Source: Dissostichus eleginoides (taxonomy: Eukaryota). Taken from it: a DNA stretch of 64,000 nucleotides. The stretch covers positions 7,299,185 to 7,363,184 of the forward strand of contig CM062276.1 in the NCBI GenBank assembly GCA_031216635.1, in the 5' to 3' direction. This document shows, piece by piece, positions 30,227 to 48,415 of this stretch. Both the position numbers and the translations under genes were made by a program. The stretch's first letter is position 1, and every line of letters begins with the position of its first letter. The notes beneath the pieces are model-generated. The model did not search any database and was not told the origin of the DNA. It worked only from the letters and a program-made list of their open reading frames with translations.

Positions 30227-30282
30227 TTACATTTCCTCATCTTCCTCCTGTAAGTTAGAGTTCTCGTTCCACTCTGCCCAAC
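30227..30282 (-). CDS. Probable terminal coding exon: ..WAEWNENSNLQEEDEEM-TAA (frame needs a 1-nt carry-over not supplied by my model of the preceding exon; alternatively the phase-0 reading runs past a GTAAGT donor)
   Basis: ggctcacag|GTTGGGCAGAGTGGAACGAGAACTCTAACTTACAGGAGGAAGATGAGGAAATGTAAgttttt: an acidic C-terminus with the stop at 30227-30229, but GAAAT|GTAAGT is also a perfect donor; the 3' end is unresolved. Confidence 0.3.

Positions 30283-48415: not shown

Follow-up and report, generated by a model that had tools for sequence, protein, structure and literature searches.

We analysed a 64,000-nucleotide stretch of the Dissostichus eleginoides genome (GenBank assembly GCA_031216635.1, contig CM062276.1, forward-strand positions 7,299,185 to 7,363,184), referred to below as the window and numbered from its first letter. 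Between 48415 and 30231 on the minus strand, the window carries a long series of mini-exons encoding short basic and acidic peptide modules. This repeat region is very probably the 5' four-fifths of a single teleost ApoL gene of ~22 kb—the orthologue of apold1a/si:rp71-1g18.13—in which the module array would act as a tether. A sequence-only reading of the same DNA had instead proposed a gene of ~49 mini-exons confined to 30227–48415 and lying between two APOL-like genes. The mini-exons proved real and number 51, but 30227 is not the end of the gene; likewise, while the upstream ApoL gene is a separate paralogue, the downstream ApoL exons very probably belong to the same gene as the repeats, as we conclude from phase-correct splicing and from full-length orthologue models.

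Probable continuity of the repeat region with downstream ApoL exons

The gene model was curated from tblastn alignments of 94 homologous proteins together with splice-site scoring, after motif scans and a phase-aware search for AG...GT exons had revealed many short open segments encoding one or the other module. It comprises 53 coding exons, all on the minus strand, of which 51 lie within 48415–30231; the ApoL exons follow:

28606..29020, minus strand: ApoL-domain exon 1, MMEQAADRVYMAARLF ... MEFVQ, holding a Gly/Ala/Thr-rich hydrophobic hairpin
26086..27673, minus strand: last exon, with the remainder of the ApoL domain and a Lys/Glu/Arg-rich tail

Together, the 40-nt exon 30463-30424 and the final exon of the repeat region (30282-30231, 52 nt) leave two bases, AT, before the gtaagt donor of the latter, and the acceptor ...tctctgtgcag/G at 29020 completes the ATG, giving an in-frame junction (30231/29020) that reads ...EEDEE-M/MMEQAADRVYMAARLF (...EEDEEM/MMEQAADRV). 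The TAA at 30227 is read-through into this same donor (AT/gtaagt). When the Chanos apold1a protein (P0020) was aligned by tblastn, the alignment took in modules and two linker exons, 30771-30697 and 30282-30231, before continuing into 29016-28606 (82% identity) and 27670-27086 (79% identity). Joined in this way, and with the frame-broken exons described below left out, the model encodes 1,447 aa and matches the Pfam ApoL family (PF05461) at 109.3 bits (gathering cut-off 25.9; E=3.2e-31), over model residues 1041-1305 and profile positions 37-297 of 298. A Pfam scan of the full joined model returned no family besides ApoL.

A split locus is very unlikely: the repeat region would in that case be a gene or transcript of its own, for a stand-alone acidic-basic repeat phosphoprotein, and the downstream ApoL exons a second gene. 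Such an arrangement would agree with the read-through stop at 30227 and with two existing models that lack ApoL, one from Anableps (P0001, 866 aa) and one from Cottoperca gobio (P0002, 571 aa, named 'nucleolar protein dao-5-like'). The Cottoperca model, however, ends in the frame-shifted read-through of a broken exon: the Cottoperca copy of the EKNIFSNMFKK exon is frame-broken at 70 nt (L002 21308-21377), and because of this break the 571-aa repeat protein was truncated and a second gene called, an ApoL-positive model of 1,029 aa that begins 278 bp later. Window exons matching the span of that second model encode further modules, the linker, and ApoL. Moreover, the donor at 30231 is a strong gtaagt that joins the ApoL exon in exact phase. 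More than 20 orthologous models, as well as transcript contigs, pass directly from the last module through the linker into ApoL; more than 12 teleost gene models unite start, modules, and ApoL domain in one protein, and full-length single-gene models exist in at least 12 species.

Separately, a PDB sequence search with the ApoL domain (28606-29020) gave no more than marginal matches (E=0.003) to NheC (6tao) and MakE (6w08), components of ClyA-family alpha-pore-forming toxins, over the hydrophobic hairpin region. These may reflect the Gly/Ala-rich composition of the hairpin.

Architecture of the module array

The 51 exons of the repeat region, all bordered by AG and GT, fall into three groups behind a short first exon:

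48368..48415, minus strand: first coding exon, ATG at 48415, encoding MEACMMKPEVKKKPNP; matched by tblastn to residues 1-16 of P0001/P0002
42409..48198, minus strand: N-terminal non-repeat exons 2-13, proline-rich and basic, with PxxPxR motifs
48198-48172, 48022-47954, 47287-47234, 46174-46122 (53 nt, frame-broken), 45673-45614, and 45209-45168, minus strand: exons 2-7
45072-45007, 43636-43565, 43485-43435, 43040-42945, 42633-42562, and 42465-42409, minus strand: exons 8-13
32602..41363, minus strand: alternating module array, exons 14-45, each 48-75 nt except one of 141 nt
30231..32453, minus strand: linker exons 46-51, conserved in orthologues from cyprinids to percomorphs
32453-32379 (polybasic GLRRRKTIKKKKR), 31857-31795, and 30976-30914, minus strand: linker exons
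30771-30697 (VEMAAYPTGENPL) and 30463-30424 (40 nt, WWNTVK), minus strand: linker exons
30282-30231, minus strand: linker exon 51 (52 nt, GWAEWNE...EEDEE, donor gtaagt)

The start codon at 48415 coincides with the start of annotated orthologues (MEACMMKPEVKKKP...; MEAC..KPEVKKKPKPPKP), and the N-terminus of the first exon is common to the full-length orthologues P0209, P0210, and P0214. An acceptor at 48421 implies a 5' untranslated exon further upstream.

Exon lengths range from 27 to 141 nt (median 66), and coding sequence makes up 3,335 of the 18,185 nt of the repeat region. The sequence-only reading had described nearly all exons as 48-96 nt long and joined in phase 0-0. This description largely stands: 47 of the 51 fall within 48-96 nt, and 46 of the 51 are multiples of three joined in phase 0-0 (one third would be expected; binomial P=3.7e-17); four mini-exons, on the other hand, fall one nucleotide below a multiple of three. 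Its central proposal, that of one gene made of symmetric phase-0 mini-exons each encoding one basic or acidic module, was borne out.

From exon 14 (41363) to exon 45 (32602), basic (B) and acidic (A) modules follow the order ABABABABABBABAxABABABABxABABAAB, in phase 0-0 throughout except for two frame-broken exons. The basic consensus is EKGGxFSGxFKKxPK, or more fully EKGG-Phi-F-S-G-Phi-F-K-K-S/T-P-K, and the acidic consensus is ELSASxDSLSENxxxK (E-L-S-A-S-x-D-S-L-S-E-N). The alternation, which had been ascribed to the whole region, is thus a property of exons 14-45, whereas exons 1-13 (48415-42409) and the last six (32453-30231) hold no clean modules of either kind; three degenerate basic modules lie within exons 2-13 (at 45072, 43485, and 42633).

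A hidden Markov model (HMM) of the repeat unit built solely from the modules of other species found 28 half-units in the window, all on the minus strand and all between 42615 and 32658. It found no match on the plus strand, in the rest of the window, or in five shuffled windows. The module array is real and well above chance. Pfam found nothing in the repeat region (no family at E<=1 on the repeat concatenate), in agreement with the earlier statement that no named repeat family matches. An open reading frame (ORF) scan of both strands showed no long ORF or intronic gene—ORFs of more than 110 aa were solely microsatellite or intron read-throughs—and Rfam returned no RNA families over 25-50 kb.

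As for short motifs in the N-terminal part, PxxPxR (for example TPLVPQRP and TPVVPPRP) occurs in array-keeping orthologues and in paralogues, and is lacking from the short zebrafish orthologue P0125. Paralogues of the 'apolipoprotein L1' and apold1b types (P0009, P0026, P0146, and P0150) carry three to five NPF motifs in their N-terminal regions; the apold1a-type gene model contains none. NPF is the consensus for EH-domain binding, and PxxPxR is of the SH3 type.

Conservation of the module exons

The locus is collinear with Cottoperca gobio LR131924.1 at 4.50-4.53 Mb, where the paralogous ApoL gene is likewise followed by the apold1a-type gene. There, 36 exons were matched, with AG/GT borders kept in most. 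Exons are 95% alignable between the two species at 85% identity, as against 32% alignable at 75% identity for introns. Across 18 module exons, the nonsynonymous rate (dN) is 0.11 and the synonymous rate (dS) 0.36, for a dN/dS of 0.30; for the N-terminal exons 2-13, dN/dS is 0.54. The module exons are therefore conserved islands under purifying selection.

Array growth and frame breaks

Within the array, several features record change in copy number or reading frame:

35154..37166, minus strand: tandem triplication plus partial fourth copy of a ~660-720-bp four-exon block, found by self-BLAST and alignment
38562..38655, minus strand: minisatellite of 18 bp x 5.2 in frame, (DLSAQK)5, with 100% matches in Tandem Repeats Finder
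37047..37105, minus strand: frame-broken 59-nt acidic exon copy (DELLDSDLSAS...), compared with 60-nt copies at 36458 and 35734
36152..36225, minus strand: frame-broken 74-nt copy of the EKGGKLFGVLLKKTPK basic exon, with CCC-AAG where its paralogues have CCCAAAG
34540..34610, minus strand: frame-broken 71-nt basic exon, EKGGLFGVFLR and then the shifted frame (K)PPKVSGDEATAE

The exons of the triplicated block encode EKGGKLFGVLLKKTPK, EGEAEKELSASNDDLSENNTPK, EKNIFSNMFKKPQK, and DELLDSDLSASTENLSGNKQ, with copies 83-90% identical, and the block is present in fewer copies in Cottoperca. The minisatellite, a single copy in Cottoperca, explains why the acidic exon that contains it (38659-38519) is 141 nt long. 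Thus, the array has gained modules in two ways, through blocks of exons duplicated in tandem and through a minisatellite expanding in frame.

The frame breaks affect four mini-exons, of 53, 59, 74, and 71 nt. The 59-nt acidic copy, left out of the 53-exon model, is a probable dead cassette exon. Because neighbouring exons are in phase 0, skipping a dead cassette exon would be harmless to the frame, and such skipping, together with predicted isoforms that differ by whole modules, fits a birth-and-death picture of the array. The last exon also carries two 1-nt deletions relative to Cottoperca (~26915 and ~26428), so that as assembled its first in-frame stop lies at 26884-26882, ahead of the conserved EDGLNI* stop at 26088-26086.

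Taken together, the four short mini-exons and the two deletions that create the premature stop at 26884 might indicate that the gene is decaying in D. eleginoides—that the array is a relic, and the locus a pseudogene or a gene with a truncated tail. We regard this as unlikely. The broken exons are flanked by phase-0 exons and the frame survives their skipping; the ApoL-coding exons are intact and 82-89% identical to their orthologues; dN/dS in module exons is 0.30, as given above; and of 16 indels found in the coding portion of the last exon, 14 have lengths divisible by three. For three of the four broken exons, the break falls within or beside a short homopolymer run, as an indel error of assembly would, and one module copy is likewise broken in the high-quality Cottoperca reference, suggesting that dead cassettes may be normal in this gene. 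The breaks may stem either from assembly error or from real decay.

Orthologues and taxonomic distribution

In a search with the concatenated modules, which the earlier reading had put forward as a check, all matches were teleost proteins, mostly of 650-930 aa, in which modules are N-terminal and a Pfam ApoL domain C-terminal. Full-length teleost orthologues of ~1,130-1,700 aa combine the same start, modules, and ApoL in one RefSeq or Ensembl model, under the names 'apold1a' or 'si:rp71-1g18.13' or under automatic low-complexity names:

XP_062386586: Sardina pilchardus, 1703 aa
XP_043885659: Solea senegalensis, 1627 aa
XP_062338498: Osmerus eperlanus, 1533 aa; seven isoforms of 1290-1533 aa
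Further full-length orthologues: Takifugu (1503 aa), Oncorhynchus (1265-1468 aa), Oryzias (1303 aa), and Pungitius (1322 aa)

By a strict motif count, these orthologues have 5-13 basic modules in addition to a WWxxV motif, with 10-13 in the full-length models listed here, and the unit profile matches 11-20 stretches in each. The alignment to the Solea protein runs from modules through ApoL over 523 residues at 77% identity, and identity to named apold1a proteins across linker and ApoL is 60-82%. Common to the group are the MEAC..KPEVKKKP start, RRRKTIKKKKRVVSFRVK, VEMAAYPT, WWNTVKGWAEWNE, and the terminal EDGLNI*. Transcript evidence comes from a cyprinid contig (L004, 3,094 nt) in which one ORF (135-2174) holds modules, linker, and ApoL, and from a contig of the paralogue (L001, 3,313 nt) that likewise has all three in one ORF; a wolffish-like Logan contig (P0103) ends 18 nt upstream of the linker exon and is uninformative on the module junction. 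In many species 4-10 isoforms are predicted per gene, and those of Osmerus differ by blocks of 45, ~90, and 185 aa that correspond to whole modules.

When the unit profile (basic plus acidic) was searched against 1.84 billion representative proteins at E<=1e-3, it gave 102 matches. Names were looked up for 30 vertebrate matches, and all 30 are teleosts, from eels to percomorphs, each belonging either to the apold1a-type gene or to the paralogue named 'apolipoprotein L1'. Pfam has no model for the module. Our literature search yielded no paper with 'apold1a' and no description of the module pair; a study of zebrafish apol1 (PMC4492502) reports no signal peptide, and the protein studied here likewise lacks one. 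Published zebrafish apol1 work deals with a 2.6-kb locus and leaves repeats unmentioned, and a paper on APOL evolution neither covers fish N-termini nor describes repeats. The gene studied here is hence a further member of an already-annotated but uncharacterised teleost family, and no stand-alone new gene.

Outside fishes, the unit profile also matched a few nematode repeat proteins. Of these, P0235, P0236, and P0258 (Caenorhabditis nigoni, Bursaphelenchus) contain ~85-aa repeats with ITGLFKKSPSHLDYP or IVGMFKRTPAHEDYP. We rejected them as relatives: only the core G(L/M)FK(K/R)(S/T)P is common to these repeats and the fish basic module, and their Pfam matches are spurious sums over repeats. 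The core may be a convergent short linear motif.

Protein properties and a proposed mechanism

If the frame-broken exons are skipped, the predicted protein would have ~1,450 aa, arranged as a proline-rich basic N-terminus, a disordered array of ~700 residues, the conserved linker (polybasic and Trp-rich), ApoL, and a Lys/Glu-rich tail. Charge-hydropathy analysis classes the N-terminus, repeats, linker, and tail as disordered in composition and ApoL as folded. An AlphaFold2 (AF2) prediction for the orthologue P0025, made from 23 aligned sequences, shows no secondary structure in the module region, with a predicted local distance difference test (pLDDT) score of 30-40. In each basic module, KK-(S/T)-P-K adjoins between two and four hydrophobic or aromatic side chains; the net charge is 0 to +5 per exon, and one chain holds ~17 basic sites and 12 S/T-P-K sites.

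Two properties raised by the sequence-only reading did not survive comparison with shuffled sequences. The supposed CK2-type phosphorylation cluster is not enriched, with 23 S/T-x-x-D/E sites in 685 aa compared with 23.4 +/- 4.1 in composition-matched shuffles. Nor is the basic core distinctly amphipathic: for GGIFSGMFKKS the hydrophobic moment, muH(100 degrees), is 0.30 against 0.27 +/- 0.13, a value reached by 42% of shuffles, and across module cores it ranges from 0.30 to 0.50.

Unstructured clusters of basic and aromatic residues—the MARCKS effector domain is an example—attach to acidic membranes until phosphorylation releases them, and ApoL proteins insert into membranes. On this background, we propose that the array may act as an alternatively spliced, multivalent tether for ApoL; our confidence is moderate as regards the architecture and low as regards the biochemical detail. 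Since almost all module exons are symmetric (phase 0-0), we infer that they behave as cassette exons; splicing, along with the birth and death of exons, could then tune module number with the frame kept. The basic modules would offer many weak, unstructured sites for acidic lipids or for a ligand, and their avidity might concentrate or orient the ApoL domain at a membrane, where the domain itself would supply insertion. The acidic Ser-rich spacers and the S/T-P sites might provide charge balance and possibly phospho-regulation of the kind known from the MARCKS electrostatic switch.

Several points weigh against this reading, or against its parts. Exon use in D. eleginoides is drawn from homology and splice signals rather than from RNA, and in two annotation pipelines the repeats became a protein of their own, lacking ApoL (the Anableps and Cottoperca models above). 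Given the 1-nt frame breaks in four mini-exons and in the last exon, the assembled gene can encode the full protein only if those exons are bypassed in splicing or the assembly itself is in error. In zebrafish and cyprinids the orthologues are 667-680 aa long and have kept no more than a few degenerate modules, which implies that a large array is not essential to the core function of the gene. Against membrane binding stand a hydrophobic moment no higher than in shuffles and the lack of enrichment of CK2 sites. Finally, the AF2 model of P0025 is of low confidence throughout, ApoL included (mean pLDDT 42.7, predicted template-modelling score 0.27), so that its 'disorder' signal is weak.

An alternative that we consider possible, though we would not favour it, is that the modules are repeated short linear motifs recruiting a protein partner, the array then serving as a multivalent scaffold; candidate partners include a kinase, a 14-3-3-like reader of the phosphorylated acidic module, or a trafficking adaptor. 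Sharply conserved positions from eels to percomorphs (GG-Phi-F-S-G-Phi-F-K-K-x-P-K; L-S-A-S-x-D-S-L-S-E-N) are typical of recognition motifs, and the same G(L/M)FK(K/R)(S/T)P core recurs in the unrelated nematode repeat family. The presence of NPF motifs in the paralogues and of PxxPxR in the same N-terminal regions points the same way, as does an amphipathicity no greater than chance. Against this, no partner or known motif class matches the modules and Pfam finds nothing; a scaffold would also be compatible with membrane binding rather than exclusive of it.

Intronic repeats and neighbouring genes

The introns contain two long dinucleotide tracts and several elements with terminal inverted repeats (TIRs):

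40819..41021: (AC)103, that is, (TG)n on the transcribed strand, abutting the 3' splice site of exon 40813-40742
45676..45916: (AC)120, (TG)n on the transcribed strand, abutting the 3' splice site of exon 45673-45614
39158..39659: ~500-bp TIR element, TIRs AAAGGTC(C/A)CCTATTAT, with an inverted second intronic copy at 44383-44889
31232..31747: hAT-like element of 516 bp, with 16-bp TIRs (TAGGGCTGCACAATAT) and an 8-bp target-site duplication (TTTCATAC)

The two (CA)n tracts of ~200 bp had been recognised correctly. Where long UG repeats flank a 3' splice site, TDP-43 or CELF proteins can bind them and favour skipping of the exon, CFTR exon 9 being an example; exons 45673-45614 and 40813-40742 may accordingly be regulated cassettes. 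The ~500-bp TIR family was detected by self-BLAST; an exact-seed inverted-repeat scan gave one good TIR pair. With further copies at 12321-12778 and 6451-7396 (the latter interrupted), its four copies are 93-94% identical, marking a young, non-autonomous family resembling miniature inverted-repeat transposable elements (MITEs). In place of the at least four intronic MITEs reported earlier, we could confirm three (39158-39659, 44383-44889, and 31232-31747).

Upstream, 54152-63555 on the minus strand holds a separate ApoL paralogue, of the 'apolipoprotein L1' type. Its ApoL exon at 55102-54152 is 97.8% identical to P0009 of Notothenia coriiceps, a match that points to a notothenioid-like fish, and its own N-terminal modules lie beyond the end of the window. 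Residues 218-243 of P0009 match the plus strand at 63811-63894, opposite to the rest of the paralogue; a local inversion or a fault in the assembly is the suggested cause. At the other end, 12084-12212 on the minus strand matches the DOMON-containing C-terminus of the Chanos protein P0020; the probable source is a distinct gene further downstream that the Chanos annotation merged with apold1a.

Relation to known systems and significance

The closest counterparts of this gene are the teleost apold1a/si:rp71-1g18.13 genes, which share the start peptide, the N-terminal PxxPxR region, the alternating basic and acidic modules, the RRRKTIKKKKR-VVSFRVK linker, WWxTVxGWxEWNE, ApoL, and a Lys/Glu-rich tail ending in EDGLNI. 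Module number varies by lineage; the triplicated block and (DLSAQK)5 are specific to the lineage of the window, and the D. eleginoides copy differs further in having several frame-broken exons. These orthologues are computer predictions with automatic names, and our search turned up neither experimental nor descriptive papers on them. More broadly, the ApoL family (human APOL1-6 and APOLD1; PF05461) has in common the C-terminal ApoL domain and its Gly/Ala-rich hydrophobic hairpin, but we know of no N-terminal array of this kind in mammalian APOLs or APOLD1.

Likenesses to MARCKS/AKAP12 and to TCOF1/NOLC1, both raised by the sequence-only reading, hold as physicochemical and architectural analogies but not as family membership, since no profile matches. 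With MARCKS and AKAP12, the modules share Phe and aliphatic residues beside a Lys cluster, Ser/Thr within the basic patch, and a disordered context; there is no Pfam MARCKS match, however, and the fish modules are shorter, less basic, and present in many tandem copies with acidic spacers. With TCOF1/NOLC1, titin PEVK, and nebulin, they share a symmetric exon per repeat, cassette splicing, tandem exon duplication, and acidic Ser-rich/basic alternation. Unlike TCOF1/NOLC1, they show no Treacle or SRP40/NOLC1 profile match and no enrichment of CK2 sites, and the fish array is fused to a membrane domain rather than to nucleolar or sarcomeric modules. The NCBI labels 'nucleolar protein dao-5-like' and 'titin homolog' are automatic low-complexity matches. 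Nor do the fish modules show the helical periodicity, with a hydrophobic moment above chance, that would be expected of amphipathic-helix lipid-binding repeats (apolipoprotein A/E 11/22-mers, perilipin, and synuclein).

Although the gene is already predicted in many fish genomes, the locus offers a lesson in annotation: tiny symmetric exons, some of them frame-broken, lead pipelines to split one gene and to misname its parts ('midasin-like' among others). It also brings to light a conserved N-terminal module pair, for which we found no published description, attached to ApoL in two teleost paralogues. Human kidney disease and innate immunity both involve the ApoL family, for which zebrafish serve as a model; the N-terminal repeat part is not discussed in the published zebrafish work that we consulted. 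More speculatively, and with considerable doubt, teleosts might have fused a membrane-inserting or pore-forming ApoL domain to a fast-changing, lineage-specific cassette array of 20-35 symmetric exons that encode two hitherto undescribed motifs. On this reading, the zebrafish 'apol1/apold1' gene models on which disease modelling relies would lack a functionally important N-terminus, and splicing and exon turnover would set the valency of a membrane- or partner-binding tether and thereby tune the site and strength of ApoL action, with a role perhaps in innate defence or at endothelial or podocyte membranes.

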